DNA of 64,000 nucleotides from Escherichia phage MIZ6: sequence record OR192075.1; one strand, 5' to 3'. Shown in pieces: positions 29,535-58,527 of this stretch. Numbering within the stretch: the first letter of the stretch is position 1; each line of letters opens with the position of its first letter. The notes beneath the pieces were generated by a model, which was not told the DNA's origin, made no database searches, and saw nothing but the letters and a program-made list of their open reading frames with translations. Both the position numbers and the translations under genes were made by a program.

Positions 29535-29745
29535 ATAATGCACCATCGAGTAATTGCTCTAAGGTGTATCCTGAATAGTCTTTTTCAATAAGGGTATATT
29601 TTCCTACTCGTTTAATACAACCGCGCATTTCAACGTATTCTGCGTAGTTGATGGTACGAGTTGTTCCATCTTCCAGTAATGCAGTACCGATTTCGTTAAT
29701 GCGGTCATAAGTTACGTCGGTAATGATGATTTCGATGTTAGCCAT
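29533..29745 (-). CDS. Hypothetical early protein (70 aa)
   Basis: SD GGAGTATCAA before ATG; promoter cassette upstream. Confidence 0.5.
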   Translation of the reverse strand: MANIEIIITDVTYDRINEIGTALLEDGTTRTINYAEYVEMRGCIKRVGKYTLIEKDYSGYTLEQLLDGAL

Positions 29746-29781
29746 TTGATACTCCTTAGTAGTTCGTTTCGGTATGGGTGT

Positions 29782-29810
29782 ATTATGCTATACACCCTCT
29801 GTTATGTCAA
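29782..29810 (-). promoter_or_regulatory. Early promoter cassette (TTGACA-17-CATAAT) with inverted repeat over -10
   Basis: Minus-strand TTGACA; inverted repeat GGGTGTAT/ATACACCC 29776..29797; conserved leader + SD. Confidence 0.55.
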
Positions 29811-29816
29811 CAACTT

Positions 29817-29996
29817 TTAGAACATTTTTGAAATTAATTTTGCTTTGATTTCGCAGAGAACACCTAAAGATTTCTCGTCACCCGCTTTTGCTGCTTCTGA
29901 TTGCATTTTTGAAATGGCTTCAATGTCAGTGCAATTATAAGCCGCTTGAACTTTAGCGATTGCGATGATTGCCGATTCGATGGTTAAGTGTTTCAT
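29817..29996 (-). CDS. Hypothetical early protein (59 aa)
   Basis: ORF just below track cutoff; ATG preceded by GGAGAATCAAAC; promoter cassette upstream. Confidence 0.45.
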   Translation of the reverse strand: MKHLTIESAIIAIAKVQAAYNCTDIEAISKMQSEAAKAGDEKSLGVLCEIKAKLISKMF

Positions 29997-30028
29997 GTTT
30001 GATTCTCCTTTCGTTTCGGTATGTGTGC

Positions 30029-30058
30029 ATTATAGGGGGATCACCGATCCCCTGTCAA
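30029..30058 (-). promoter_or_regulatory. Early promoter cassette (TTGACA-18-TATAAT); spacer is GGGGATC-ACC-GATCCCC palindrome
   Basis: Consensus hexamers; spacer palindrome contains two GATC sites. Confidence 0.6.
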
Positions 30059-30065
30059 CAACTTT

Positions 30066-30584
30066 TTAGTTATTTTTTAATTGCTCATCTTGTAATAGGG
30101 CAATAACATGCTGTCGATGTTCTTCCGATTGAGGCACACCGAAAAAGTTTGTTTTGTAGAAATACTCTAATCGGTCTTCTCGTGTGCTCTCTTCCATCAT
30201 GATCGCGGGTAGTCCGAGATTTCGGAAACGTCGCTTTTCTGCTGGCGTAAAATCACTGTAATACAACATAGAATCATCATTACCAGCAATGCTAAACTCA
30301 TCATTCATAAAGGAGAATATTGCGTTTAAACGCTGTTTACCGTCCACGATTTCGATCTCATAGCGAGAGCCATCATCAATCTTAGCCATTGCGATAGCAC
30401 CAACCGGAAAATCATTAATCAGGTTTTCGATAAACATACGTTTGTTTTCGGTGTCCCATACCAAAGGACGCTGATAATCTGGGTTCATGTTGATATAGCC
30501 ATCTTCTAACCACGCCTCATAAACAGAGATGACAAAGTTTTTAGTATTGGTATAGTAACGGCGTTTAGGCGTTAAACGGTTCAT
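30066..30584 (-). CDS. DUF262 (ParB/Srx-like, GmrS N-domain-like) protein
   Basis: 172 aa from ATG 30584 (SD AGGAG upstream); motifs DYQRP and VDGKQR typical of DUF262. Confidence 0.55.
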   Translation of the reverse strand: MNRLTPKRRYYTNTKNFVISVYEAWLEDGYINMNPDYQRPLVWDTENKRMFIENLINDFPVGAIAMAKIDDGSRYEIEIVDGKQRLNAIFSFMNDEFSIAGNDDSMLYYSDFTPAEKRRFRNLGLPAIMMEESTREDRLEYFYKTNFFGVPQSEEHRQHVIALLQDEQLKNN

Positions 30585-30585
30585 G

Positions 30586-30918
30586 TTATAGTCTCCTGAA
30601 TGGATCATCACGTAAATCAATATCTTTTAAGAACTCATCCCATGAATGGCGGATATTGTTCTTAATTCTCCAGATAAGCGCAGGGATTGAACGCTCTCCC
30701 ATCTGGAAGTAGGGATCATATGATCCGTATGCCCAATATGCTACTACAATTCCACAATCAGCGCAATAGTATTCTATTTCACTTGCTGGCGACCAAATTC
30801 CATCAATATGATCGGTGATCCTGCTTTCGATGTTATGGCTATGGCAATCAGGGCAACGGATGCAATGACCTTGTTTATCGTAATTTGACGTTAGAGAATA
30901 CTTAAACAATCTCATCAT
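30586..30918 (-). CDS. Zn-ribbon protein, possible degenerate HNH-like His-Me finger
   Basis: 110 aa; CIRCPDCHSH ... DHID ... CADCG; stop abuts downstream ATG. Confidence 0.45.
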   Translation of the reverse strand: MMRLFKYSLTSNYDKQGHCIRCPDCHSHNIESRITDHIDGIWSPASEIEYYCADCGIVVAYWAYGSYDPYFQMGERSIPALIWRIKNNIRHSWDEFLKDIDLRDDPFRRL

Positions 30919-31631
30919 AGATCCTTATTGGCTTCAAATACTGCCTTTGCGAATCCTCGCGGGGTAAGTGACCTGATAGTCTTTGTTCTGGTTCCTTTCC
31001 CGCCTAGCTTAGAATGCTGTTTACTGTACCCTTTATTAATCTGCAACGGTTTCTTTTCTGGCATTATAAAGCCTTGTCCGGTCCATAAGCAAGTCTTTTT
31101 CGGGTACATATCACGGGCGGCAATATACTCAGGAAACGTAGGATGTTTATCATCTTCCGGCAAATAACCGCCATATTCCCACGGATGGAACATGTAATCA
31201 GGCTTACGCCACATACTAGAGATAACGCTTACAGGATTCTCTATCATGTAGGGAACTCCTATCCATTCACCCAAATAAGCGGTTATTTTAGCTGCCCGTA
31301 CATCATGAACTTGAATCAATGGTCCTTGTTCTCGTTTCTTTCGTTCAAAGTGCGCAGCGCCACTAACAGCTAAATTGGTGCACGGTGGGAATGCAAATAT
31401 AATATCCGGTTTCCCCCATTCAAGGTCCATTGCTCTTTCCAGCCAGTTCAAATCAATCCAGGTGTTTACATAGGTAATGTTTGGATGTTCAAATCTGGTA
31501 TTATACTTTTTGTATGTACCGTGGTCGGCGTCATCCGCATTAAAGCAGACTACCTTATGACCTGCTTTAGCCCATTCTAGCCCCATTATCCCCGATCCGT
31601 CAAAGTTGCAGAATATTAATTTTTGTTTCAT
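30915..31631 (-). CDS. Minimal C5-cytosine methyltransferase-fold protein
   Basis: 238 aa; FDGSG (motif I-like), FPPCT (motif IV PC-like), ENP (motif VI-like) at DNMT-like spacing; too short for a full TRD. Confidence 0.45.
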   Translation of the reverse strand: MKQKLIFCNFDGSGIMGLEWAKAGHKVVCFNADDADHGTYKKYNTRFEHPNITYVNTWIDLNWLERAMDLEWGKPDIIFAFPPCTNLAVSGAAHFERKKREQGPLIQVHDVRAAKITAYLGEWIGVPYMIENPVSVISSMWRKPDYMFHPWEYGGYLPEDDKHPTFPEYIAARDMYPKKTCLWTGQGFIMPEKKPLQINKGYSKQHSKLGGKGTRTKTIRSLTPRGFAKAVFEANKDL

Positions 31632-31873
31632 ATACGACCCTTTAACCCAGCACAGATTTTAGTCGGTTCTTTACCGTGCCACATTAAGTAAAGTCCGTTA
31701 ATGCGACCTTGTTTTGTGTGTGATTCTTTTCTGATCTTCTTATAGTGTCGTGCTTCCTCAACTGATTGTTTAGAATACCAATCATAAAGGAAGAGGCACA
31801 AAGGCCAACCATTAGCGGCCTTAATGCAGTTATTAAGAAATTCCTTATTGCGTTTAATTAATTTTCTTTTCAC
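31628..31873 (-). CDS. Hypothetical basic protein (81 aa)
   Basis: GTG start overlapping upstream stop (GTGA); GGGGG SD-like upstream. Confidence 0.4.
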   Translation of the reverse strand: MKRKLIKRNKEFLNNCIKAANGWPLCLFLYDWYSKQSVEEARHYKKIRKESHTKQGRINGLYLMWHGKEPTKICAGLKGRI

Positions 31874-32121
31874 GCTGCCCCCATTGGTTTGATAGTAACA
31901 GAATCTAAAAGACCTTTGTTAGCCAGTTCGCGGCAAGTTTTCAGATCCGCAACTTCCCAGCCAGCCGCAATCAGGTTATCAATGAGGCTGTTAGCAACTT
32001 CTTCGCTCATGAAAGAGCACTGTTTGCCTATGGTGTAGCGTACACGCTGTAATTTCAGTTTACGGAAGCCTTTAACGTTCAGGTCTTTAGCGATTTTCTT
32101 TGCGGTTTCGATGTTAGCCAT
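31870..32121 (-). CDS. Hypothetical protein (83 aa), first gene of operon
   Basis: ATG preceded by GGAGAATCAAAC leader. Confidence 0.5.
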   Translation of the reverse strand: MANIETAKKIAKDLNVKGFRKLKLQRVRYTIGKQCSFMSEEVANSLIDNLIAAGWEVADLKTCRELANKGLLDSVTIKPMGAA

Positions 32122-32161
32122 TGTTTGATTCTCCTAAGTGGTATCTCGTCTTGATGGTTGT

Positions 32162-32191
32162 ATTGTAGGGGATCTCCCGATCCCCTGTCAA
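32162..32191 (-). promoter_or_regulatory. Early promoter cassette (TTGACA-18-TACAAT), palindromic GATC spacer
   Basis: Spacer GGGGATC-GGGA-GATCCCC; heads the five-gene operon 30066..32121. Confidence 0.55.
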
Positions 32192-32205
32192 CACTTTTTA
32201 TAAAA

Positions 32206-32373
32206 TTATTTGTTAATTTCTGGTGCGTTGCTCGGATAGTAACCTTCTTTAACACCAAGATATTTTGCAACCATTCCTACAATCTTCTGTGCTACTACAA
32301 TGTCAAATTTCAGATAATCTTCGCCGTGGGTTTCAATGATATATGCTTCACATGCTGCTTTAGTCTCGAACAT
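32206..32373 (-). CDS. Hypothetical small protein (55 aa), paralog of 36524..36691
   Basis: 3' 72 nt identical to 36524..36595; SD GGAGAATCAAA before ATG. Confidence 0.5.
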   Translation of the reverse strand: MFETKAACEAYIIETHGEDYLKFDIVVAQKIVGMVAKYLGVKEGYYPSNAPEINK

Positions 32374-32407
32374 TTTGATTCTCCTATTTCGTTTCGTTAT
32401 GTGTGTA

Positions 32408-32436
32408 TTATAGGGGATCTCCCGATCCCCGTCAAC
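32408..32436 (-). promoter_or_regulatory. Early promoter cassette (TTGACG-17-TATAAT), palindromic GATC spacer
   Basis: Spacer GGGATCGGGAGATCCCC. Confidence 0.55.
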
Positions 32437-32448
32437 AACTTTTTAAAA

Positions 32449-32922
32449 TTATTTGCACCAAATTCGAATGATTTCGTCTCGTTCAAATTTTTGCCAGATT
32501 ACTCGGTCGCCCGCTGCCATAATACTGACAAATCCAGTTATATTTCCGGTGTACTTGCTTTTAGTTTCTGCATCATATTCAAAGAATGGAGCTTTAAGAT
32601 CGCTAAACTCATCTTTTCCCACAAACTTCATAACATGACGGTGTGCGTAATATTCGCTTCTTAGTGTTGTTGTGATAGTTCCGTCATCATTTGATTTCAG
32701 ATGCAATTCGGCATCTTCATAAAGACTTGCATCTCGTTGTTTACTTTCGATACCATCATTATATGTTGATTTGGTTGCACTCCAACATTGATATGTCTTA
32801 TCTACATTTTCGATCTTTTCCTGTGTCATGTCAAAAAGCGGCGCAACCTTTTTCTTAGCCGCGTGCGCAACGTTGGTCATAGACAGTGCCGCAACAACCG
32901 CAATAGCAATAATTTTCTTCAT
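32449..32922 (-). CDS. Predicted secreted/periplasmic protein
   Basis: 157 aa; N-terminal signal peptide MKKIIAIAVVAALSMTNVAHA followed by AKKK. Confidence 0.55.
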   Translation of the reverse strand: MKKIIAIAVVAALSMTNVAHAAKKKVAPLFDMTQEKIENVDKTYQCWSATKSTYNDGIESKQRDASLYEDAELHLKSNDDGTITTTLRSEYYAHRHVMKFVGKDEFSDLKAPFFEYDAETKSKYTGNITGFVSIMAAGDRVIWQKFERDEIIRIWCK

Positions 32923-32983
32923 AATATCATCTCCTTTGGTTTATATGGCGGGAGTATCTTAGCAATACTCCCTTAATACTATA

Positions 32984-33265
32984 TTATTCGTGATTAGTTT
33001 CGATGTTGTGCATTTTGCACCAGTTCAGCCAATCGCCCAGATCTTGATAGTTGATGCTTTTATCTGCTGCCATCGTTTTTGTCTTGATACCCATATGTGC
33101 GTTATGAGTAAGCATTTTTACAGTGAACTCAATTTTATCGCCTTTAGCTTTAACATCAACCAGTTTGGTCCACTGGCTACCAGCGCCGCGAATGTTCATG
33201 CCAACGATGTTTCCGATGTATGCTTCTTTGTTTTTCAGGATTTCGGTTGCTTTGATGAATTTCAT
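32984..33265 (-). CDS. Hypothetical early protein (93 aa)
   Basis: Conserved leader and promoter cassette upstream. Confidence 0.5.
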   Translation of the reverse strand: MKFIKATEILKNKEAYIGNIVGMNIRGAGSQWTKLVDVKAKGDKIEFTVKMLTHNAHMGIKTKTMAADKSINYQDLGDWLNWCKMHNIETNHE

Positions 33266-33298
33266 TTTTGATTCTCCAGTTCGTTTCGGTATGGGTGT

Positions 33299-33327
33299 AT
33301 TATGCTATGTTCTTACTTTGGTGTCAA
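33299..33327 (-). promoter_or_regulatory. Early promoter cassette (TTGACA-17-CATAAT)
   Basis: Minus-strand hexamers; A-tract upstream of -35. Confidence 0.55.
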
Positions 33328-33335
33328 CAACTTTT

Positions 33336-33605
33336 TTAGATATTTTCAGAAATAAATTTTAAAACTTGACGTAAATGTTTCTCATCTTTGATAGTCGCCG
33401 GAAGTTCTTCTTTTACTTCCTGTGCAAGATAGATATTTCCGTTCCAAGTGAAAGATCCGTCTTCGTTTACGCGATAGCTGAACATCCACTCGCAATCATT
33501 TTCGATTTCATATACACACAGAAGGGTGTAATCGTTAAAGCTATTGATTTCAAGGTCGAAGCCGTGACGTTTTGCAAAGTTGGTAGTGGTTTTAGTCAGT
33601 GCCAT
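33336..33605 (-). CDS. Hypothetical early protein (89 aa)
   Basis: Conserved leader GGAGAATCAAACA before ATG. Confidence 0.5.
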   Translation of the reverse strand: MALTKTTTNFAKRHGFDLEINSFNDYTLLCVYEIENDCEWMFSYRVNEDGSFTWNGNIYLAQEVKEELPATIKDEKHLRQVLKFISENI

Positions 33606-33645
33606 TGTTTGATTCTCCTAAGTGGTATCTCGTTTCGATGGGTGT

Positions 33646-33674
33646 ATTATGCTATACACAGGATCTGGTGTCAA
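33646..33674 (-). promoter_or_regulatory. Early promoter cassette (TTGACA-17-CATAAT)
   Basis: Minus-strand hexamers; partial inverted repeat over -10. Confidence 0.55.
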
Positions 33675-33696
33675 CAACTTTTTTAAAAAATAGGCA

Positions 33697-33722
33697 ATAA
33701 AAAAGCCGACACTATGGTCGGC
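33697..33722 (-). terminator. Rho-independent terminator
   Basis: GCCGAC-ACTATG-GTCGGC with A-run on plus strand. Confidence 0.65.
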
Positions 33723-33727
33723 ACATT

Positions 33728-33982
33728 TTAAAAATTCTTGCTATATATGCAAGCCTCATAATCTAGAGGATGACCGCCAATCCTACCAGGCTTAATATTC
33801 CAACCGCATCGATATTTGCTGACCATGCTAACCGTTTCGGTTCTTAGAGCATTTCTTTGCAAATCATACCCCCTAAATTCTTGTCTATAAGGACAGTCCG
33901 CTTTGCAAGTTGGCGGTTCTACGTCATTTAGCGGGTCAGAAGCAGTTGGCTTTATTATCAATTCTTTGTTTGCAATAATCAT
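33728..33982 (-). CDS. Hypothetical protein (start uncertain)
   Basis: Track ORF 33728..34045 overlaps upstream gene; internal ATG at 33982 chosen; Cys-containing. Confidence 0.3.
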   Translation of the reverse strand: MIIANKELIIKPTASDPLNDVEPPTCKADCPYRQEFRGYDLQRNALRTETVSMVSKYRCGWNIKPGRIGGHPLDYEACIYSKNF

Positions 33983-34115
33983 AAGCACATCCCATTGAAG
34001 GCAATTTAACATCTTCGCAATAAGTGTTGAATCCGTCAAATACAATCACTTCGTATTTGACTCCATCGGCGATAGCTTTTACTTTATACCATCCATGCTT
34101 GTATAAAATCTTCAT
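33936..34115 (-). CDS. Hypothetical small protein (59 aa)
   Basis: ATG at 34115 preceded by GAGGGAAATAAAG; track ORF extends with TTG start. Confidence 0.45.
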   Translation of the reverse strand: MKILYKHGWYKVKAIADGVKYEVIVFDGFNTYCEDVKLPSMGCAYDYCKQRIDNKANCF

Positions 34116-34148
34116 CTTTATTTCCCTCAATCTCGTTTCGATTGGTGT

Positions 34149-34177
34149 ATTATGCTATAGGCGTGAACTGGTGTCAA
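34149..34177 (-). promoter_or_regulatory. Early promoter cassette (TTGACA-17-CATAAT)
   Basis: Minus-strand hexamers. Confidence 0.55.
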
Positions 34178-34202
34178 TGCCTTTTTTTAAAATTTTATGC
34201 AA

Positions 34203-34227
34203 TAAAAAAGCCGACACTAAGGTCGGC
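34203..34227 (-). terminator. Rho-independent terminator
   Basis: GCCGAC-ACTAAG-GTCGGC with A-run on plus strand. Confidence 0.65.
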
Positions 34228-34235
34228 TAATAAAA

Positions 34236-34544
34236 TCATTTAGACAAATAATCATTCTGTGCAATCCGGTCGGCGTATGCTGGTGTTATGTCAATCGCCA
34301 GCACTTTAACGCGTGCTTTCTTGCGACCTGGGTTTTCTCGTAACCAGTGCTCATGACCGTGAACATTTTTATACTTTGATGCTGTTTCGAAAGTACGGAT
34401 CGGACCTGGGTAATCAGCGTAAAGGATCTCTAGATCTTCGGTGATGTAAAAATATACATCGTAATTGCTGTTCTCTAGCTTAAGCAGAGACTTTCGGAAC
34501 ATTGGGAGATTTTCGCGGGTAAATTCAAAGATATTATCTTTCAT
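34236..34544 (-). CDS. HxHW-motif small protein family, member 1
   Basis: 102 aa; YDVYFYITEDLEI ... HGHEHWL ... VKVLAIDI. Confidence 0.5.
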   Translation of the reverse strand: MKDNIFEFTRENLPMFRKSLLKLENSNYDVYFYITEDLEILYADYPGPIRTFETASKYKNVHGHEHWLRENPGRKKARVKVLAIDITPAYADRIAQNDYLSK

Positions 34545-34567
34545 AGTATTATCCTCAATAGTTGGAT

Positions 34568-34588
34568 GAAAAGGGGCGTTAACGCCCC
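34568..34588 (-). terminator. Terminator-like hairpin
   Basis: GGGGCG-TTAA-CGCCCC with flanking A/T runs. Confidence 0.5.
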
Positions 34589-34594
34589 CATATA

Positions 34595-34882
34595 TTAAAA
34601 CAGTCCTTCCTGTACACCGTAGTAGAGTTCGTCGCTGATAATTTCATTAATGCGACGGTGTGCATATTCCTGATTTGCGAAGTTGTCAGCAAGTTCTACT
34701 TTAGTTTCGCCGTCATGAGTCCATTTAGTGATAACTTTACCATCTGCAAATTTGAAGTTGAACTCTTTAGCTACTGCATCGCGTACCAGACGTGCAAACT
34801 TATTGTTGCGGATTGCATTGTCGGTTTCGTGTGCAGCGTGAGCAAATTTGTTAACTTTCAGAGTGATAGTGATGTATGCCAT
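34595..34882 (-). CDS. Hypothetical early protein (95 aa)
   Basis: Leader GGAGAATCAAATT before ATG. Confidence 0.5.
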   Translation of the reverse strand: MAYITITLKVNKFAHAAHETDNAIRNNKFARLVRDAVAKEFNFKFADGKVITKWTHDGETKVELADNFANQEYAHRRINEIISDELYYGVQEGLF

Positions 34883-34928
34883 AATTTGATTCTCCTAGTT
34901 AGAAAGTGTATCTCGTTTCGATGGGTGT

Positions 34929-34957
34929 ATTATGCTATACACCCGATCCGTTGTCAA
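34929..34957 (-). promoter_or_regulatory. Early promoter cassette (TTGACA-17-CATAAT) with inverted repeat GGGTGTAT/ATACACCC
   Basis: Perfect 8-bp inverted repeat 34923..34944 overlapping -10. Confidence 0.55.
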
Positions 34958-34963
34958 CACTTT

Positions 34964-35242
34964 TTATAAAATAATTTTTTGATATTTTTCTATGATGTTT
35001 GTGTAGGTCACATCAACCGCTAGCACCGTTGCTTCGAATCCACCGTTTAGCCAATGGCTATGGTCATGATCGTGAAAGAAACCAAGACCAGTACGAAGAC
35101 CTTCTTTATATTCGGCGCGTACATTTAGATCATCATCGATAAACAGATAAAACCATGAATTTTTACTAGGATTGATGATACAACCTTTCAGATTAGGGAG
35201 AATATCACGACTAAGAATAAACTTATCACCTACTTTTAGCAT
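34964..35242 (-). CDS. HxHW-motif family, member 2
   Basis: From ATG 35242 (SD GTGAGGAAA); FYLFIDDDLNV ... HDHDHSHWL ... VLAVDV. Confidence 0.5.
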   Translation of the reverse strand: MLKVGDKFILSRDILPNLKGCIINPSKNSWFYLFIDDDLNVRAEYKEGLRTGLGFFHDHDHSHWLNGGFEATVLAVDVTYTNIIEKYQKIIL

Positions 35243-35256
35243 AATATTTTCCTCAC

Positions 35257-35565
35257 TTATAAAGTTTGACCGTTGTTTTTCGCGTAATGCTGAATGCGTG
35301 CTTGATCTGCTTCCGCTGGTGATAGATTCCATGCGATCACTACAACTTCTGACGCATCATGATCATTATCACTTACCCAATGATTATGATTCATACAATT
35401 GTTTGCTATCGCGTGAGAAAATGATCTCATTACCGGAGACGTATAATCATAGTAACGGATTTTCAGATTTTCATCAACGTACAAGTAGATCGTATACGGC
35501 TTATATTCAGTAACCAGTAACAGACAGTTACGCAATTCTGGGAAAATCTTTTTAGTTAATTTCAT
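35257..35565 (-). CDS. HxHW-motif family, member 3
   Basis: From ATG 35565 (SD CGAGGATTA); IYLYVDENLKI ... NHNHW ... VVVIAW. Confidence 0.45.
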   Translation of the reverse strand: MKLTKKIFPELRNCLLLVTEYKPYTIYLYVDENLKIRYYDYTSPVMRSFSHAIANNCMNHNHWVSDNDHDASEVVVIAWNLSPAEADQARIQHYAKNNGQTL

Positions 35566-35566
35566 T

Positions 35567-35785
35567 TTATAATCCTCGGTCGCGGCTATAGTACACGGTA
35601 CGCCATACAATTTCATGTTTCGTGTCGCTCCAGCACACGATCTCATTTACTCTTAAATCTTTGTTATCAACAAAAGATGAACATTGTGACGCTTCTTTCA
35701 TCATTTTATCTGCTGTTTTCTCATCAAATACAGCACAGATTTCTTTATACACTCGATAATCTTTGAATTGACTCTGGATACCCAT
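35567..35785 (-). CDS. Hypothetical small protein, paralog of 35745..36002
   Basis: Shared FK.Y..Y ... KMM.EAS.C.SF motif with neighbour; 41-nt out-of-frame overlap. Confidence 0.4.
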   Translation of the reverse strand: MGIQSQFKDYRVYKEICAVFDEKTADKMMKEASQCSSFVDNKDLRVNEIVCWSDTKHEIVWRTVYYSRDRGL

Positions 35786-36002
35786 AATTAACACCATTCC
35801 AACCAATTGTTTTTGAGAAAACGTTTATCCACTGTTGAGTGTAGCATGTTTCTTTCCATGATACAATACGAGTAGAATAATGGTTTTTGTTTCCAGAAAA
35901 GGACGGGCATTTTGATGCATCTTCCATCATCTTTTCGGCGAACTCTGGTGCGTATACTCGCAGGATCTGTTGATATGCTTTGTATTCTTTAAATTTGCTC
36001 AT
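35745..36002 (-). CDS. Hypothetical small protein, paralog of 35567..35785
   Basis: MSKFKEYKAY ... EKMMEDASKCPSF. Confidence 0.4.
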   Translation of the reverse strand: MSKFKEYKAYQQILRVYAPEFAEKMMEDASKCPSFSGNKNHYSTRIVSWKETCYTQQWINVFSKTIGWNGVNYGYPESIQRLSSV

Positions 36003-36267
36003 AATCATTCACTACCTTATCAGCTTCTTTTGTTGTTTTTACATCAACTGCGATAACTCGTAAAGGTTCGTCATGGTTCCACCAGTGGTCATGAATATCA
36101 GCTTGTGATTTATCACCAAAGGAATCACGAATATCATTTTTACATTTATAGCTAATGTGACCTTCATAGTCAACATAAAGGTAATTATCGAAAATCGGCG
36201 TTTTTAAGATCATACCGAAAAATCTTTCTTTGTGTGTCTTATCCAGCGTTGCAGTAATTCGCATCAT
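35989..36267 (-). CDS. HxHW-motif family, member 4
   Basis: NYLYVDYEGHI ... IHDHWW ... VIAVDV; SD AGAGGAATA. Confidence 0.5.
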   Translation of the reverse strand: MMRITATLDKTHKERFFGMILKTPIFDNYLYVDYEGHISYKCKNDIRDSFGDKSQADIHDHWWNHDEPLRVIAVDVKTTKEADKVVNDYEQI

Positions 36268-36279
36268 AATATATTCCTC

Positions 36280-36459
36280 TTAGAAAGGGATGGTCATTTC
36301 TTGAGCTTGTACGTTCTCGTTAGGATTAAACTTCATCCAGCCGATATTGTCTACCAGCATATGCACATTTTTATCATATCCTACGTGGGTAGTCAATACT
36401 GTATGTGCTTTACCTTCAATGATGAGTTCCATGTACTTCTGAACTTCGATAGCTTTCAT
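36280..36459 (-). CDS. Hypothetical small protein (59 aa)
   Basis: ATG preceded by GGAGAATCAAA; promoter cassette upstream. Confidence 0.45.
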   Translation of the reverse strand: MKAIEVQKYMELIIEGKAHTVLTTHVGYDKNVHMLVDNIGWMKFNPNENVQAQEMTIPF

Positions 36460-36491
36460 TTTGATTCTCCGTTTGTTGTCTTGATGGGAGT

Positions 36492-36520
36492 ATCTTACTA
36501 CTCCCTTTAATCATTGTCAA
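36492..36520 (-). promoter_or_regulatory. Early promoter cassette (TTGACA-17-TAAGAT) with inverted repeat GGGAGTA/TACTCCC
   Basis: Minus-strand hexamers; heads the run 36459 down to 34964. Confidence 0.5.
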
Positions 36521-36523
36521 CTA

Positions 36524-36691
36524 TTATTTGTTAATTTCTGGTGCGTTGCTCGGATAGTAACCTTCTTTAACACCAAGATATTTTGCAACCATTCCGGTGA
36601 TCTTCTGTGCTACTACGATATCGAATTTCAGGTAGTCTTCACCGTGGTTTGCTACAATGTATGCTTCGCATTCTGCTTTAGTCTGGAACAT
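36524..36691 (-). CDS. Hypothetical small protein (55 aa), paralog of 32206..32373
   Basis: 3' 72 nt identical to 32206..32277. Confidence 0.5.
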   Translation of the reverse strand: MFQTKAECEAYIVANHGEDYLKFDIVVAQKITGMVAKYLGVKEGYYPSNAPEINK

Positions 36692-36723
36692 TTTTGATTC
36701 TCCTATCTCGTTGGTATGTGTGC

Positions 36724-36752
36724 ATTATAGGGGATCACCGATCCCCTGTCAA
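36724..36752 (-). promoter_or_regulatory. Early promoter cassette (TTGACA-17-TATAAT), palindromic GATC spacer
   Basis: Spacer GGGGATCACCGATCCCC. Confidence 0.6.
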
Positions 36753-36757
36753 CAACT

Positions 36758-37051
36758 TTATAATGCTTTATATGCGTATTTCATAAATTTGTCTGCCACT
36801 TCATTGGCATGTTCAGATTCTACGCCTGATTCGAGAACAATAGCTAGGTCGGTTTCGTCATTCCCGCCGTACCAATGATTTGATGTTCGATTTTTTTCAA
36901 TTGGAAATTGGTCACTTTTATCTGTGCGACAAAATACATCTAAATGCTCGTCGATGTAAAAGATCCAATCTTCATAAAGAATAACGGTATTAGCCAGATT
37001 TTTATTGCCTTCAACGAAAGGTTCGGCTACAAACAAATTAGTATGTTCCAT
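36758..37051 (-). CDS. HxHW-motif family, member 5 (divergent)
   Basis: From ATG 37051; ILYEDWIFYIDEHLDV ... SNHWYGG ... LAIVLESG. Confidence 0.4.
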   Translation of the reverse strand: MEHTNLFVAEPFVEGNKNLANTVILYEDWIFYIDEHLDVFCRTDKSDQFPIEKNRTSNHWYGGNDETDLAIVLESGVESEHANEVADKFMKYAYKAL

Positions 37052-37067
37052 AGTATTTTCCTCAAAA

Positions 37068-37259
37068 TTATACAGCTTCGTAAACTTCCCAATGTCCAAC
37101 ACCAGCACGCTTAACGAAAAGGTTTTCTTTTATGTTATTCATAAACGTCTGGATGGATTTAATGCGGTTTGAAGGTTTCCATTCTTCGTTGGTATTGCGT
37201 CGATACATCATAACATTACCAGTTCGCTTATATTCAGCAACCATTTTAAGACCACACAT
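37068..37259 (-). CDS. Hypothetical small protein (63 aa)
   Basis: SD TTGAGGATAA before ATG. Confidence 0.45.
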   Translation of the reverse strand: MCGLKMVAEYKRTGNVMMYRRNTNEEWKPSNRIKSIQTFMNNIKENLFVKRAGVGHWEVYEAV

Positions 37260-37315
37260 AATATTATCCTCAATTTGTGGGAGAGTATTACCCTCCCGAT
37301 TATTGTTATACTACA

Positions 37316-37618
37316 TTACGCAAAATGGCGTGTCAATGCTTCTTTTGCTGTTCCGCTAAGATTCTCGATCTCTCCTGGCATAACATCAACCGCAAGAACT
37401 TCTACAACATCCTCTGATCCTAACCAGTGAGTATGACCTTTGTAGAACTTGATATCCCATTTATCGCTATCGCTAGCCCACCACACATCACCGTCGATAA
37501 AGTTGATGTAAAGCACACTACGCCACATTGAATTAATTACTTTCAATACTGCGCCTTTCATCTCTTCCACGGTGTGGTCTTCCATTTTGAAGACCTCACC
37601 TACCTGAACTTTTGCCAT
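37316..37618 (-). CDS. HxHW-motif family, member 6
   Basis: LYINFIDGDVW ... GHTHWLG ... VLAVDV; SD AGAGGTGA. Confidence 0.5.
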   Translation of the reverse strand: MAKVQVGEVFKMEDHTVEEMKGAVLKVINSMWRSVLYINFIDGDVWWASDSDKWDIKFYKGHTHWLGSEDVVEVLAVDVMPGEIENLSGTAKEALTRHFA

Positions 37619-37635
37619 TTAGTCACCTCTCTTTA

Positions 37636-37815
37636 TTACATAACAATCACGCCAGCCGTTGAAAGTTGATGTTTCAACTGAGCATTTTCTGCTACCGTCA
37701 AATCAATGATTTCTTGTGACGCTGCAATCATATAGCCATTGGTGATATTGTTTTGCATCAGTTCAATGGTTTCTTCGTTGTAGCGGATTTTAGCGATGAT
37801 TTCGTTGAAGTTCAT
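37636..37815 (-). CDS. Hypothetical small protein (59 aa)
   Basis: ATG 37815 preceded by GGAGAATCAATT; track ORF extends with TTG start. Confidence 0.45.
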   Translation of the reverse strand: MNFNEIIAKIRYNEETIELMQNNITNGYMIAASQEIIDLTVAENAQLKHQLSTAGVIVM

Positions 37816-37849
37816 AATTGATTCTCCTAGTTCGTTTCGGTATGTGTGT

Positions 37850-37878
37850 AGTATAGGGGATCGGTGATCCCCTGTCAA
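37850..37878 (-). promoter_or_regulatory. Early promoter cassette (TTGACA-17-TATACT), palindromic GATC spacer
   Basis: Spacer GGGGATCACCGATCCCC on minus strand. Confidence 0.55.
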
Positions 37879-37886
37879 CAACTTTT

Positions 37887-38198
37887 TTAAAGTTTTTCCA
37901 TGATAACGGTCATAATTACATCTTCTGCGCGAGCGGTCAGATTATCAGCGTCAGCATGTGGGCGGCTGGTTGTTACAGAGATAACACCGTTGCGCACTGG
38001 TTTGATGTTGATATCAAGATGATCCGCGAAACGTTCGCCAGTTACAGAATGAATTTTGGTGTTAAATTCTTTTGCCAGTGCCTTGCGAACTTCACGAATC
38101 AGGGTAGCGTTTTTCAGTTGGTTCTCCGCGCTCATGGTCTTCTGGGTGTTCATGGTTCCGTCGAAGTCAATCATTGGCAGCGTTACGATGTATTTCAT
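37887..38198 (-). CDS. Hypothetical early protein (103 aa)
   Basis: ATG 38198 preceded by GGAGAATCAAAA. Confidence 0.5.
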   Translation of the reverse strand: MKYIVTLPMIDFDGTMNTQKTMSAENQLKNATLIREVRKALAKEFNTKIHSVTGERFADHLDINIKPVRNGVISVTTSRPHADADNLTARAEDVIMTVIMEKL

Positions 38199-38243
38199 TT
38201 TTGATTCTCCGTTTAAGAAAGTGTGTTTCGTTTTGATGTGTGT

Positions 38244-38272
38244 AGTATAGGGGATCACCGATCCCCTGTCAA
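38244..38272 (-). promoter_or_regulatory. Early promoter cassette (TTGACA-17-TATACT), palindromic GATC spacer
   Basis: Spacer GGGGATCGGTGATCCCC. Confidence 0.55.
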
Positions 38273-38284
38273 CAACTTTTTGAA

Positions 38285-38761
38285 TTATTTTTCTTGATGC
38301 TCGCGATCGTACTTTTCGAAATAAAATTCTACTGGCTGGTCGTGGATTGACAGCAAGCCAAAGCGTTTAGCCGCTCGCAATCCCATATTGCGCTGAATGT
38401 ACTTCTGGAAGTTCTCGCGTATACACTTACGCCAGTATTCTAAGCCCATACAGCTTTTATAAAGATTGCATTGCACACACGCCGGATTCATGTTATAAAG
38501 TATATCATGCTCCGGTTTATGCATTCCTACAACCTTATATTTCCATGATCCATCATCATTACGGGCAATTCGTCCATTTTCATCATAGACTACCTTTGAG
38601 CGTCGCAATACTGGTTTGATGTGGTCTGCGTGCCAGCGATCCCCTAGTTCCTCGCCACAATAGGCACAACGTCCACCATATTTCATTTTCAGGATCTGGC
38701 GTTGCTCTTTCTTTGACAATTTTTTAGGTTTAGGGGCTTTCGCCCCTTCATTATCACACAT
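38285..38761 (-). CDS. HNH endonuclease (free-standing, homing-endonuclease-like)
   Basis: CAYCG ... HADHIKP ... N ... CVQCN ... K motif; overlaps ligase stop by 8 nt. Confidence 0.7.
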   Translation of the reverse strand: MCDNEGAKAPKPKKLSKKEQRQILKMKYGGRCAYCGEELGDRWHADHIKPVLRRSKVVYDENGRIARNDDGSWKYKVVGMHKPEHDILYNMNPACVQCNLYKSCMGLEYWRKCIRENFQKYIQRNMGLRAAKRFGLLSIHDQPVEFYFEKYDREHQEK

Positions 38762-45673: not shown

Positions 45674-46072
45674 TTAACTTTCCAGAATATCGCGAGCTTC
45701 GTTACGCTCCTTGATGATTTTCAGGACAAATTCCAGTTTTTCTTTGTTCAGTGTTCCGTTTTCCATTGCTTCTTTGACGGTAAACACTCCGCCACCTTGC
45801 CCGTATACAGTGACAGTGATTTCACCTAACATCGTGGTATGAAAACCGCCAATTTTCGGTGATTCGAAAGAAACAATTACCTCGCGAACAGTATTACCGT
45901 CGTTGATTTCTGAGAGGGTAATGTCGTTTTTGTAGGCGGTTGCTTTAACCATACGGATCAGCATAGTCTGATCTGGGGAGATGGTCATTTTGTCCATTGC
46001 ATGTTGCAATGCAGCGTAACCGAAAACTTTAACGAAGTCCAGAACATCTTTGCGAGTTTGAAATTTAATCAT
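45674..46072 (-). CDS. Hypothetical protein (132 aa)
   Basis: SD AAGGAGTAC before ATG; promoter cassette upstream. Confidence 0.5.
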   Translation of the reverse strand: MIKFQTRKDVLDFVKVFGYAALQHAMDKMTISPDQTMLIRMVKATAYKNDITLSEINDGNTVREVIVSFESPKIGGFHTTMLGEITVTVYGQGGGVFTVKEAMENGTLNKEKLEFVLKIIKERNEARDILES

Positions 46073-46105
46073 CTTGGTACTCCTTAGTTGTTTTGGTGTG
46101 GGAGT

Positions 46106-46134
46106 ATCTTACTACTCCCGTGATATGCTGTCAA
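46106..46134 (-). promoter_or_regulatory. Early promoter cassette (TTGACA-17-TAAGAT), inverted repeat GGGAGTA/TACTCCC
   Basis: Minus-strand hexamers. Confidence 0.5.
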
Positions 46135-46142
46135 CTGCTTTT

Positions 46143-46292
46143 TTATGCAACCGCAAACATCAACATTTGAACATTCTTGGCTGTCTGGCTTTCAAAGTTC
46201 TGACATTCTTTGATAATGTCCTCTACTTTCTCGCCGGAGATCTCCGCGTAAGTTTCGATTGCCATTTTCAGTACCGCGTCAAAGTTGTTCAT
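46143..46292 (-). CDS. Hypothetical small protein (49 aa)
   Basis: ATG preceded by GGAGAATCAAA; intact after anchoring to flanking ORFs. Confidence 0.4.
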   Translation of the reverse strand: MNNFDAVLKMAIETYAEISGEKVEDIIKECQNFESQTAKNVQMLMFAVA

Positions 46293-46332
46293 TTGATTCT
46301 CCTTAAAGTGTATTTCGTTTCGATGGGGGGGT

Positions 46333-46361
46333 ATATTACTACCCCCGTTTCATGCTGTCAA
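46333..46361 (-). promoter_or_regulatory. Early promoter cassette (TTGACA-17-TAATAT)
   Basis: Inverted repeat GGGGGTA/TACCCCC over -10. Confidence 0.5.
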
Positions 46362-46580
46362 CTACTTTTTAATGACAAGTTCGAATTTTGCTACCTTGCG
46401 TCCTCGTTTATTGAAAGCAACCCACGGACGGTTTTCAATGTAGAACAATTCTTCACCAATAATGAATACTGGCTGATTGTAAAGGCGACCCATCAGGTCA
46501 CGCTGGCGAATGGTAGTAGATTCGTATACTTCGCCTACTACAAAGTGTTTGCTGATAGAGTCGGTGCAAGTAAATTTCAT
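46362..46580 (-). CDS. Hypothetical early protein (72 aa)
   Basis: Leader GGAGAATCAAA before ATG. Confidence 0.5.
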   Translation of the reverse strand: MKFTCTDSISKHFVVGEVYESTTIRQRDLMGRLYNQPVFIIGEELFYIENRPWVAFNKRGRKVAKFELVIKK

Positions 46581-46611
46581 TTTGATTCTCCTTTGTTTTC
46601 TTGATGGGAGT

Positions 46612-46641
46612 ATCTTACTACCCCCCGTTATTCAGTGTCAA
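46612..46641 (-). promoter_or_regulatory. Early promoter cassette (TTGACA-18-TAAGAT)
   Basis: Inverted repeat GGGAGTA/TACCCCC variant. Confidence 0.5.
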
Positions 46642-46648
46642 CTACTTT

Positions 46649-46867
46649 TTACTTGTTGTATTCATTCCACCACTGGGTGAGCTTATCAATTATTTTTGTG
46701 TTTCTATCCAACTTCTCCCACCGTTTTCTATGGTTTATCAACCGGAATAGGTAAGGTGTACTTGTTAAGTGAACTCGGTCAATGTAGTGATTGATGTACT
46801 GCTTTTCGATTCTAAGTTTCATCTTTTTACGATGAAAATATGCAATGACTTGTTCTTCTGTTTCCAT
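46649..46867 (-). CDS. Hypothetical early protein (72 aa)
   Basis: SD GGAGGAACAT before ATG. Confidence 0.5.
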   Translation of the reverse strand: METEEQVIAYFHRKKMKLRIEKQYINHYIDRVHLTSTPYLFRLINHRKRWEKLDRNTKIIDKLTQWWNEYNK

Positions 46868-46891
46868 ATGTTCCTCCGTTTCGATGGGTGC

Positions 46892-46920
46892 ATTATGCTA
46901 TACCCCGATCCGATTGTCAA
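46892..46920 (-). promoter_or_regulatory. Early promoter cassette (TTGACA-17-CATAAT)
   Basis: Minus-strand hexamers. Confidence 0.55.
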
Positions 46921-46931
46921 CACCCAATAAC

Positions 46932-46955
46932 AAAAAAGTCGCCACTATGGGCGAC
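46932..46955 (-). terminator. Rho-independent terminator
   Basis: GTCGCC-ACTATGG-GCGAC with A-run on plus strand. Confidence 0.6.
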
Positions 46956-48960: not shown

Positions 48961-49127
48961 TATCCGACAACCTCAAAACATTTATCATCAGGAAGAATCG
49001 CCCATTCTACACCGTATTCATCCTCGACGTAGTAGCAAGTCCCATCATGTCGAGCATCATATTCATCACCAACAACAAAGCTATCAGCTAGTTCAAAATC
49101 TACAGCAACACATTTTAATTTGGTCAT
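48960..49127 (-). CDS. Hypothetical small protein (55 aa from ATG 49127)
   Basis: SD GTGAGGATTT before ATG; track ORF extends to GTG at 49190. Confidence 0.4.
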   Translation of the reverse strand: MTKLKCVAVDFELADSFVVGDEYDARHDGTCYYVEDEYGVEWAILPDDKCFEVVG

Positions 49128-49158
49128 AATAAAATCCTCACTTGTTTTTGATGGTTGT

Positions 49159-49187
49159 ATTATAGCGGGGATTTCTCCCCGCGTCAA
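49159..49187 (-). promoter_or_regulatory. Early promoter cassette (TTGACG-17-TATAAT), spacer palindrome CGGGGA-TTTC-TCCCCG
   Basis: Sits 9 nt below nrdA stop. Confidence 0.5.
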
Positions 49188-49195
49188 CACTTATT

Positions 49196-53659: not shown

Positions 53660-53989
53660 TCAAATCAGTTTAAAGAAGTTTTCGTTTACATTTTCTTCTG
53701 TGATTGCTGTCTTAAATTCTTGACCGTTATCCGGTGTGATGAAATAACGGTCAGAATAATCACGAAAACGTTTTAAGTGAGATACCCCAACATTAACACC
53801 ATTTTCCCAAAAACGAAAGGTAATCATTTTTGGTTCATATCGATAGTCGCTGGTTAACACAGTACCATCACCGCGACGGGCTTCATAAACCGTAATACAT
53901 TCACGATTAGCGGCTTTAAGGCATTCTTCAATAGTGCCGCACGAGATAATACTTACTTTTTCATCTACGATTTGTTCTACAGTCCACAT
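53660..53989 (-). CDS. Hypothetical protein (109 aa)
   Basis: SD AGAGGATTAT before ATG; promoter cassette upstream. Confidence 0.5.
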   Translation of the reverse strand: MWTVEQIVDEKVSIISCGTIEECLKAANRECITVYEARRGDGTVLTSDYRYEPKMITFRFWENGVNVGVSHLKRFRDYSDRYFITPDNGQEFKTAITEENVNENFFKLI

Positions 53990-54020
53990 AATATAATCCT
54001 CTCTTTGTTTTGATGTTTGT

Positions 54021-54048
54021 ATTATACACTATTGCGTTGCGCTGTCAA
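54021..54048 (-). promoter_or_regulatory. Early promoter cassette (TTGACA-16-TATAAT)
   Basis: -35 overlaps stop of upstream gene. Confidence 0.5.
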
Positions 54049-54374
54049 CCTTTTTGTTCCATGAAAAGCGGTGCTGTTTCTTCTTTCAGTTTAATAACTA
54101 GCGCGGAAACTTCATCAAGAAAATCTTTTTCCATATGAGCAAGCATTGATTTAGAATCTTTGATGACTTTCAAAGAATATTCACTTAGATTTCCTTGTCC
54201 TAACAATAATGCAGGATACACACTATGTGGGATCTCGATTTCATGATATTCGCTCATATTATAATATTTGTGAATTTTTAAATCTATATTTCTTCGTTGT
54301 ACGTCCACATCAGCAATGACATACAGAAGTTCGATTTTATCACTTTTCTGGGAAAGGGTAGCATTCAAAAACAT
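54045..54374 (-). CDS. Hypothetical protein (109 aa)
   Basis: SD CGGAGGATTAA before ATG. Confidence 0.5.
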   Translation of the reverse strand: MFLNATLSQKSDKIELLYVIADVDVQRRNIDLKIHKYYNMSEYHEIEIPHSVYPALLLGQGNLSEYSLKVIKDSKSMLAHMEKDFLDEVSALVIKLKEETAPLFMEQKG

Positions 54375-54403
54375 TGTTAATCCTCCGTTGTTTCGATGAG
54401 TTC

Positions 54404-54431
54404 ATTATACATTACCTCGCCAACATGTCAA
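54404..54431 (-). promoter_or_regulatory. Early promoter cassette (TTGACA-16-TATAAT)
   Basis: Minus-strand hexamers. Confidence 0.5.
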
Positions 54432-54454
54432 TACATTTTCATAAAATTTTAGGC

Positions 54455-54483
54455 AATAAAAAAGCCTCCCCGAAGGAAGGCTT
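54455..54483 (-). terminator. Rho-independent terminator after gene 32
   Basis: AAGCCT-CCCCGAAGGA-AGGCTT with A-run on plus strand. Confidence 0.6.
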
Positions 54484-54492
54484 TAAAATTCA

Positions 54493-55461: not shown

Positions 55462-55521
55462 ATTCACTATTCCTTCTTTTGATTAATTTACTAGACTATT
55501 ATACAGATTTAAATTTACTTG

Positions 55522-56202: not shown

Positions 56203-56211
56203 ACATACCCC

Positions 56212-56481
56212 TTAAATATCGAGAGTGTTGGTCGGTTCGTCGATCACTCCCTTCCTGAGCGTTCTATTTACTATACATTCTTGTGTGATCTTGTCAATAA
56301 TGGACACCGGAATATACTTCTGATAGTGACCATATTCGATAGAGTTTTCCTCTACAAACTGCGTTGTCGCTTCAAGATAAGTCAACCCCTCTTCAACAAC
56401 CAGTTTTTCGATTGCAAGACCGTTTGCTGTTTTATTCGCGGCTTTTACCGCATGTTCATTAAGCATTGAACACCCGATCAT
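56212..56481 (-). CDS. Possible late transcription co-activator gp33 (by synteny only)
   Basis: 89-aa ORF between gene 59 and dsbA, where gene 33 lies in T4; alternative ATG at 56466. Confidence 0.35.
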   Translation of the reverse strand: MIGCSMLNEHAVKAANKTANGLAIEKLVVEEGLTYLEATTQFVEENSIEYGHYQKYIPVSIIDKITQECIVNRTLRKGVIDEPTNTLDI

Positions 56482-56734: not shown

Positions 56735-56738
56735 AATA

Positions 56739-57335: not shown

Positions 57336-57345
57336 ATGTCAACCC

Positions 57346-58293: not shown

Positions 58294-58295
58294 AA

Positions 58296-58481: not shown

Positions 58482-58519
58482 AATATATCATCCTCTTTTG
58501 TTTCTATCAAGCCTTATTT

Positions 58520-58527
58520 TATAAATA
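58520..58527 (+). promoter_or_regulatory. Late promoter TATAAATA upstream of gene 34
   Basis: Exact TATAAATA; SD AAAGGAGA; ATG 58556. Confidence 0.7.

Follow-up and report, generated by a model that had tools for sequence, protein, structure and literature searches.

The array of repeated minus-strand promoter cassettes at positions 29782-38272 of a 64,000-nt stretch of Escherichia phage MIZ6 (sequence record OR192075.1; the whole stretch is referred to here as the window) is very probably the hyperplastic region 3 (HPR3) set of promoter-early stem-loop (PeSL) cassettes of an RB49-like T4-type phage. The PeSL was defined in HPR3 of phage RB49, which is this same block (Arbiol et al. 2010, PMC2839356). 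The flagged 8.5 kb is 100% identical, at the same coordinates, to Escherichia phages MIZ2 and MIZ3, and 95.7% identical to RB49 114758-123294. It is collinear with RB49 ORF185c-211c, in a block bounded by alt and the gp30 DNA ligase gene, and all of the relatives compared belong to the genus Krischvirus (RB49-like T4-type phages). The open reading frames (ORFs) of the interval match only PHROGs of unknown function, or none, as expected for the ORFans that accompany PeSLs, and all sequence-level features that define the PeSL were found in the array. The first-pass annotation had likened the array to such cassettes of RB49/RB43-type phages; this was correct, and the exact locus is RB49 ORF185c-211c, in HPR3. 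The cassettes are an already published element at its own type locus and, as such, known and ordinary.

Three cassettes, PeSL193/192, PeSL206/205 and PeSL211/210, were examined by Arbiol et al. (PMC2839356). The promoter of PeSL206/205 had a strength of about 13,000 Miller units in a lacZ fusion, the stem-loop of PeSL211/210 lowered lacZ expression to about the same extent as rrnB T1, and mini-circles arising from PeSL x PeSL recombination around ORFan192 and ORFan210 were sequenced. Five PeSL subclasses were distinguished by the position of the stem, including upstream of the -35 and downstream of the -10, and the RB49 early-promoter consensus was consistent with 5'-end mapping (PMC1524935). 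PeSL206/205 is the homologue of the window cassette at 36689-36765, and the stem of PeSL211/210 that of the cassette at 38196-38284. By this homology, the window cassettes would be strong promoters in vivo, and their stems would attenuate or terminate upstream transcription.

After the minus strand had been read, a profile was built from 15 copies of the cassette. A search with this profile found 12 canonical cassettes in the interval, with upstream ends at 38284, 37892, 36765, 36531, 34971, 34190, 33688, 33340, 32448, 32205, 30069 and 29823; besides these there are two atypical elements, at 37257-37350 (stem downstream of the -10) and 32920-33000 (stem and -10, without TTGACA). The whole window gave 17 strong profile matches, or about 21 elements when weak and atypical ones are included, and the earlier count of at least 19 cassettes, made for the interval, fits the window instead. 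The complete MIZ2 genome contains 36 cassettes by profile, every one of them on the early-gene strand. A scan of viral contigs with the 14-mer AAAAGTTGTTGACA as a cassette finder gave 120 loci, most of them lone hits that arose by chance in contigs of no relevance, and was dropped; cassettes were instead gathered from annotated Krischvirus genomes.

The cassettes are about 75-90 nt long. Each lies in the gap that follows the stop codon of a small early ORF and precedes the start of the one after it, the stop codon being 10-25 nt ahead of the -35. The order of elements on the minus strand is the A-tract AAAAAGTTG, TTGACA, spacer, -10 (TATAAT, TATACT, TACAAT, CATAAT or TAAGAT), ACACNCAT, leader, GGAGAATCA and ATG, which is the layout previously proposed from the sequence. 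As in the PeSL definition, an AT-rich tract (AAAAAGTTG or TAAAAAGTG) abuts TTGACA on its 5' side. The spacer measures 17 nt in 138 of 158 copies across the relatives and 16-18 nt in all 158. The leader had been taken as common to all copies: CGAAACGA, which occurs 11 times versus 2.4 expected, is exact in 8 of the 12 canonical cassettes, but the others carry the variants CAAGACGA, CAAAACGA and CCAACGA. The Shine-Dalgarno (SD) motif GGAGAATCA occurs 12 times versus 0.67 expected, and every copy lies on the minus strand, at the SD of a cassette. It serves as the SD in 10 of the 14 interval elements, 4-6 nt ahead of the ATG, and is replaced by GGAGTATCA, GAGGGAAAT, GGAGATGAT or GAGGATAAT in the rest. 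The window contains 31 sigma-70 promoter matches of at least 11/12, of which 30 are on the minus strand, compared to 2.4 +/- 1.5 in shuffled sequences; 11 of them, all on the minus strand, fall in the interval, where three further cassettes score 10/12. The cassette family is real, with its motifs far above chance. The individual elements are as follows.

38196-38284, minus strand: PeSL upstream of the ORF210 homologue (37887-38198), homologue of RB49 PeSL211/210; stem GGGGATC-GGT-GATCCCC in the spacer; -10 TATACT; profile E = 1.6e-14; hairpin -13 kcal/mol, z = -2.45.
37813-37892, minus strand: PeSL upstream of a 59-aa ORF (37636-37815); stem GGGGATC/GATCCCC with the loop inverted to ACC; crossover partner in the ORF210 deletion (JK32, Brandy, UPWr_E1).
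37257-37350, minus strand: atypical PeSL, missed by the profile, that fits the published "downstream of the -10" subclass; TTGACA-17-TAGTAT; stem GGGAGGG/CTCTCCC (one G·U) downstream of the -10; SD of TGAGGATAATATT type.
36689-36765, minus strand: PeSL upstream of a 55-aa ORF (36524-36691, the RB49 ORF205 homologue); spacer stem GGGGATC-GGT-GATCCCC; TTGACA-17-TATAAT, a 12/12 promoter match.
36457-36531, minus strand: PeSL; stem GGGAGTA-GTAAGA-TACTCCC over the -10 (TAAGAT); z = -4.7.
34880-34971, minus strand: PeSL; stem GGGTGTAT-AGCATA-ATACACCC over the -10 (CATAAT); the RB49 orthologue has the doubly compensated stem GGGGATAT/ATATCCCC.
34113-34228, minus strand: PeSL without embedded stem; canonical terminator GCCGACCTTAGTGTCGGC-T6 (34209-34228) ahead.
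33603-33722, minus strand: PeSL with a decayed 6-bp stem, GTGTAT/ATACAC; canonical terminator GCCGACCATAGTGTCGGC-T6 (33705-33722) ahead.
33263-33340, minus strand: cassette with promoter, leader and SD and no stem-loop of any kind; minimum free energy -0.5.
32920-33000, minus strand: degenerate PeSL upstream of the ORF192 homologue; stem GGGAGTA-TTGCTAAGA-TACTCCC; -10 TAAGAT; no TTGACA; position 32983 is the common left breakpoint of three different deletions in relatives.
32371-32448, minus strand: PeSL; TTGACG; stem GGGGATC-GGGA-GATCCCC; TATAAT; right breakpoint of the ORF192 loss (W115, kaaroe, 011D4).
32119-32205, minus strand: PeSL; stem GGGGATC-GGGA-GATCCCC; TACAAT; z = -3.3; breakpoint in Brandy, JK32 and UPWr_E1.
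29994-30069, minus strand: PeSL; stem GGGGATC-GGT-GATCCCC; 18-nt spacer; TATAAT; crossover partner in the JK32 deletion of the 59-aa ORF.
29743-29823, minus strand: PeSL; stem GGGTGTAT-AGCATA-ATACACCC over the -10; SD GGAGTATCA; z = -3.5; breakpoint in JK32 and MIZ4.
46070-46935, minus strand: four PeSLs, upstream ends 46935, 46651, 46375 and 46147.
49125-49200, minus strand: PeSL; spacer stem GCGGGGA-GAAA-TCCCCGC; z = -3.9.
53987-54445: two near-consensus promoters without A-tract, stem or GGAGAATCA.

The last three entries correspond to sites that the first-pass annotation had listed as further copies of the cassette, a description that applies to the first two but not to the third. About ten more near-consensus sigma-70 promoters (at least 11/12) lie on the minus strand at 54000-62200, likewise without A-tract, stem-loop or GGAGAATCA (for example at 62113, 58441, 57884, 57342, 56845 and 55525), some of them apparently within coding sequence.

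The window was aligned to eight relatives (RB49, MIZ4, kaaroe, W115, Brandy, JK32, 011D4 and UPWr_E1). This comparison yielded 11 distinct indel or replacement events, and in seven of them both ends fell in cassettes. A cassette is present at 14 of the 29 gene junctions, so that at least seven such double hits among 11 events would be expected with p = 0.005 if the ends were placed at random gene junctions. The events, by breakpoint, are the following.

29786/30010: both ends in cassettes; JK32.
29786/32983: both ends in cassettes; MIZ4.
32453/32983: both ends in cassettes; W115, kaaroe and 011D4; the published ORFan192 case.
32210/32983: both ends in cassettes; Brandy, JK32 and UPWr_E1.
33722/34130: both ends in cassettes, inside a 96-nt terminator-plus-promoter repeat; kaaroe and 011D4.
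37904/38227: both ends in cassettes; Brandy, JK32 and UPWr_E1; ORFan210.
38292/38301: both ends in cassettes; RB49 and 011D4; ORF211 insertion.
31630/31857, 37065/37257, insertion at 37621 and insertion at 30584: outside cassette pairs.

The repeat in the fifth event is formed by the elements at 34113-34228 and 33603-33722, which constitute a direct repeat of about 96 nt, comprising the terminator GCCGACC(T/A)TAGTGTCGGC-T6 and a stemless promoter; the two copies flank two ORFs (33728-34115) that are absent from kaaroe and 011D4. Base by base, the junction cassettes in the relatives are left/right chimeras of the two window cassettes. The single JK32 cassette at the ORF210 locus takes its left flank and GGT loop from 38284 and its leader from 37892, whereas that of Brandy and UPWr_E1 combines the left flank of 38284 with the ACC loop of 37892, reflecting either a crossover point different from that in JK32 or a flip of the loop. 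The ORF210 event involved at least two different crossover points. At a second junction in JK32, 30069 is joined to 29823 within CATACCGAAACGAA. Almost every combination of hairpin loop, -10 type and leader type is found, indicating that the cassettes are themselves mosaics. The comparison of relatives proposed in the first-pass annotation thus showed ORFs gained and lost at cassettes, and it supports PeSL-mediated recombination.

The ORF211 that RB49 and 011D4 carry in addition lies between the cassette and an HNH endonuclease ORF (38285-38761 in the window; compare L001 11551-11895). In the window this ORF adjoins the DNA ligase gene and is immediately upstream of the first cassette.

A perfect embedded stem of 7-8 bp is present in 9 of the 12 canonical interval cassettes. 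The earlier statement that each copy has an inverted repeat holds for these nine but not for 33688, where the stem has decayed to 6 bp, nor for 34190 and 33340, which have no embedded stem. Both 34190 and 33688 are preceded by a textbook intrinsic terminator, and 33340 is alone in having no stem at all. When the atypical elements are included, a stem-loop accompanies 13 of the 14 interval elements: in the spacer (five), over the -10 (six, one of them decayed), downstream of the -10 (one) or solely upstream of the -35, in the form of a canonical terminator (one). Window-wide, 13 of 20 cassette promoters fold into a perfect 7-8 bp stem. For 12 of these 13 stems, at most 7% of 300 shuffled sequences folded as stably; for cassette 30058 the figure was 23%. 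The stems fall into three registers. Those in the spacer are GGGGATC/GATCCCC, GGGGAG/CTCCCC and GCGGGGA/TCCCCGC. Those over the -10 are of 8 bp (GGGTGTAT/ATACACCC, GGGGATAT/ATATCCCC, GGGAGTAT/ATACTCCC and GCGGTTAT/ATAACCGC) or 7 bp (GGGAGTA/TACTCCC and GGGGGTA/TACCCCC). None of the embedded stems is directly followed by the U-run that marks a Rho-independent terminator; the sequence that follows is TATAAT/TATACT or ATCGAAAC. No Rfam 15 covariance model matched the window at its gathering score, and the interval gave only a chance snoRNA match (E = 0.31).

Covariation of the stems was assessed in 158 cassette copies (110 unique cores): those of MIZ2, those from the parts of RB49 and Brandy that were sampled, and those from the orthologous region in six more relatives. 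Among the 42 unique sequences of the 8-bp register, which include stemless ones, 17 cells showed double-sided changes, compared to 8.5 +/- 2.2 in shuffles, and the covariation score was 0.104, compared to 0.075; neither value was reached in any of 500 shuffles, and all slid controls were lower. In the 7-bp GGGAGTA register, one pair was A-U in 13 sequences, G-C in five, G·U in two and unpaired in none, a score reached by 3 of 500 shuffles. The adjacent cassettes 46147, 46651 and 46375 form a series from A-U through G·U to G-C at this pair (GGGAGTA/TACTCCC, GGGGGTA/TACTCCC and GGGGGTA/TACCCCC). Spacer-type stems were compared by eye and in a hairpin census; MAFFT placed their 3- and 4-nt loops out of register. 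The compensatory variation noted earlier is confirmed: all of the stem pairs named for it do occur, and double-sided changes exceed those in 500 of 500 shuffles and in the slid controls.

Several observations weigh against reading the array as a set of working PeSL cassettes. Promoter and terminator activity in the window phage rest on homology to the RB49/phi1 constructs, and the function of the stem has been tested experimentally for one spacer-type stem only (RB49/phi1; PMC2839356). The consensus terminator scan calls none of the embedded stems; its only minus-strand calls near cassettes are the terminators at 34228 and 33722. In the stems over the -10, the 3' arm coincides with the conserved discriminator ACACCCAT; stemless promoters have it as well, so that its apparent conservation partly reflects promoter sequence. 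Since cassettes recombine with each other, a difference at an orthologous site that looks "compensatory" may have been copied in by conversion from another cassette instead of arising as a pair of point mutations, and the independent compensatory events are few, at most about ten. Finally, the indels are equally compatible with plain deletion between direct repeats, and no dispersed paralogues of 27 ORFs of the region were found elsewhere in the genome (in other HPRs), leaving mini-circle insertion unsupported by this comparison.

These last two points could be taken to mean that the cassettes are just repeated strong promoters that serve neither as mobile elements nor as vehicles of gene transfer, the indels having arisen passively by deletion between direct repeats. 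Indeed, every event seen against the eight relatives is a presence or absence between neighbouring direct repeats, and the published mini-circles occurred at a frequency of only about 1 per 100,000 virions (PMC2839356). We nevertheless consider this rather unlikely. One cassette, identical down to its leader, drives unrelated ORFs at 38284 and at MIZ2 121212, which lie in two HPRs, RB49 and 011D4 have the extra ORF211 inserted just upstream of a cassette, the paralogous ORFs g06 and g20 each have a cassette of their own, and the sequenced mini-circles are circular excision products.

The first-pass annotation had left open whether selection acts on a secondary structure or on a dimeric binding site. 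The data favour the former, in single-stranded RNA, and make the dimeric site less likely. The hairpin census, which was blind to the type of mismatch, found 18 distinct perfect stem types among the relatives. Among stems with a single mismatch, five had an interior G·U on the sense strand (seven when the 46651 and 37350 stems are counted), and the single A·C lay in a peripheral A-T extension. These counts are low (P about 0.04-0.06), but a preference for G·U rather than A·C on the sense strand points to pairing at the RNA level, since duplex DNA gives no such asymmetry. In the MIZ2 genome, a canonical terminator lies within 90 nt upstream of 6 of the 10 cassettes without an embedded stem, compared to 2 of the 27 with one (Fisher p = 0.002). 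Embedded stem and real terminator therefore appear to be interchangeable, as the published role as terminator or insulator predicts. Because the stems precede the start site of their own cassette, they are present only in read-through RNA from the preceding unit. A function as an RNA-level terminator or insulator, rather than as a DNA operator, is therefore favoured.

Alternatively, the palindromes might work in double-stranded DNA, either as an operator for a dimeric repressor of the early promoters or as the target of a dedicated recombination protein, which Arbiol et al. themselves raised as a speculation for GGGG...CCCC (PMC2839356). The spacer-type stems are perfect palindromes located exactly between the -35 box and -10 box, the classic operator position, and their G-run and C-run ends are almost invariant. 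On the other hand, the arms (at least 18 sequences), the loops (3-6 nt) and the placement with respect to the promoter (at least four positions) are too diverse for one sequence-specific dimer; the sense-strand asymmetry would be meaningless for duplex DNA, and the stem is dispensable where a canonical terminator lies upstream. We regard a site of this kind as improbable, and the diversity of arms, loops and positions makes a dedicated DNA-binding protein in particular unlikely. Flips of the loop, for their part, are the expected product of recombination inside a palindrome or cruciform in DNA. Two of the 3-nt loops, GGT and its exact reverse complement ACC, alternate between neighbouring cassettes (38250-38266 versus 37856-37872) and between orthologues (36730-36746 versus L004:9453, L002:6823 and L007:8335); the loops ATC, TGT and GCC are also present. 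This alternation looks less like the outcome of three point mutations than like flips of the whole palindrome or an exchange from one copy to another, and hints that the palindromes may also be active in DNA, as hairpins or cruciforms at which exchanges start.

That the stems have no function and merely arise by chance in promoter spacers rich in G+C has next to no probability: 3 of the 12 canonical interval cassettes do keep promoter and SD without a good stem, but well under 1% of segments like these should form a perfect 7-8 bp stem (z from -2 to -4.7), and the idea is already contradicted by the folding results, by covariation above all shuffles and by a distribution of stems complementary to that of canonical terminators.

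Spacer-type stems contain two GATC sites, and 12 of 37 MIZ2 cassettes, from different stem classes, have a GATC within 1 nt of spacer position +9, counted from TTGACA. A GATC/Dam mechanism was considered and rejected: GATC is not depleted genome-wide (939 observed, 882 expected), and common descent of the cassettes accounts for the pattern. A Dam methylase is among the proteins that the phage encodes. Of the tetranucleotide palindromes in the MIZ2 genome, GGCC is strongly depleted (observed/expected 0.43) and AGCT depleted (0.62), with GATC at 1.06.

Taken together, a cassette probably operates as follows. Immediately after infection, the UP-like A-tract and the near-consensus TTGACA-17-TATAAT would recruit the unmodified host sigma-70 RNA polymerase, as homology to the RB49 promoters suggests. 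The G+C-rich stem-loop, whether in the spacer, over the -10 or just upstream or downstream, would form only in read-through RNA from the upstream unit, where it would attenuate or terminate the upstream transcript or stabilize its 3' end, making each ORF an insulated unit; beyond the one spacer-type stem tested in RB49/phi1, we infer this from the covariation, the G·U bias and the complementarity with terminators. The conserved leader and the SD GGAGAATCAAA could give strong translation, and the SD is probably also a RegB/S1 site for fast shut-off, a step that we infer from the sequence. As direct repeats of about 50-90 nt, spaced every 250-900 bp, the cassettes would allow phage homologous recombination to delete, duplicate or swap the ORFs that they flank. 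Cassette-to-cassette crossover is itself shown by the chimeric junction cassettes in relatives and by the mini-circles in the literature.

The suggestion of a RegB site arises from the SD GGAGAATCAAA, which matches the strong T4 RegB/S1 cleavage consensus GG*AGRAYARAA (PMC3014915) at 10 of 11 positions. It is present at 11 cassette SDs in the window (for example 38200-38210, 36693-36703 and 32374-32384); the twelfth exact copy of GGAGAATCA, at 37819-37827, continues with ATT. The phage encodes a RegB-type endoribonuclease (MIZ2 129519-129941). The cassette SD may thus also programme rapid mRNA inactivation through RegB/S1 cleavage. More tentatively, and with considerable doubt, the cassette could be a three-part "fast on, insulated, fast off" module, in which RegB would cut each cassette mRNA at its ribosome-binding site (RBS), while the message of the preceding ORF would have its 3' end protected by the stem-loop, some 30-45 nt upstream. 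Such a module is worth a modest experiment and is not a new kind of system. Operon-internal genes without a cassette have a second conserved RBS, TGAGGA(T/A)AATA(T/C)TATG, distinct from the cassette SD (37260-37275, 37052-37068, 36268-36283, 35243-35258 and 34545-34560).

Tandem small paralogous ORFs occupy 34236-37618. A five-member family with an H-x-HW...V(L/I)A(V/I)D motif comprises 37316-37618, 35989-36267, 35257-35565, 34964-35242 and 34236-34544; ORFs 35745-36002 and 35567-35785 are 39% identical, and 36524-36691 and 32206-32373, each with its own cassette, are 89% identical. Both 37887-38198 and 34595-34882 match phrog_7474. A three-gene block without internal cassettes (30066-31631), absent from MIZ4, encodes a protein whose only domain is GmrSD_N (DUF262), at E = 4e-20, together with a weak Zn-ribbon protein and a DNA methyltransferase that matches phrog_757 but nothing in Pfam, and may be related to anti-restriction or defence.

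PeSLs are among the few concrete mechanisms proposed for the shuffling of accessory genes in large virulent phages without regulatory damage. The window provides a clean further instance, in which the published two-genome comparison is widened by eight relatives, and not a new kind of element. PMC2839356 gave no keyword match for a formal covariation test, for a sense-strand G·U bias or for a resemblance between SD and RegB site, and neither a statistical test of the complementarity between stems and terminators nor the loop flips were found in the sections of it that were consulted. Two leads follow. One is the signature of the stems on the sense strand, at the RNA level; the other is the resemblance of the SD to a RegB site. 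Neither amounts to a discovery.

The closest known system is the PeSL of RB49/phi1 itself (PMC2839356; Comeau et al. 2014, PMC4122927), with which the window shares genus and genomic block, the layout of stop codon, AT-rich tract, sigma-70 consensus, stem-loop, SD and ATG, the stem sites (spacer, over the -10, upstream of the -35 and downstream of the -10) and the link to gain and loss of ORFans, including ORFan192 and ORFan210. There is no essential difference between the two: ORF192 and ORF210 are present as in RB49, and ORF211 is absent. Canonical Rho-independent terminators, like the embedded stems, place a G+C-rich hairpin just past a stop codon, but they have the U-tract that the embedded stems lack, and the scan does not call the latter. 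The early promoters of T4 and the elements of the T-even IP locus (Repoila et al. 1994, cited in PMC2839356) are likewise strong early promoters with an upstream A-tract, repeated before small non-essential genes in plastic regions and proposed to be recombination linkers. They differ in their T4-type -35 (GTTTAC) and weak AT-rich stems, and Arbiol et al. considered them analogues, not homologues (PMC2839356). The "morons" of lambdoid phages and the linkers of Botstein and Campbell also resemble the array, in that an autonomous promoter-gene-terminator unit sits between genes and conserved linkers guide exchange. In the moron model, however, the regulatory sequences are not the vehicle of recombination, whereas here the repeated regulatory cassette is the crossover site.

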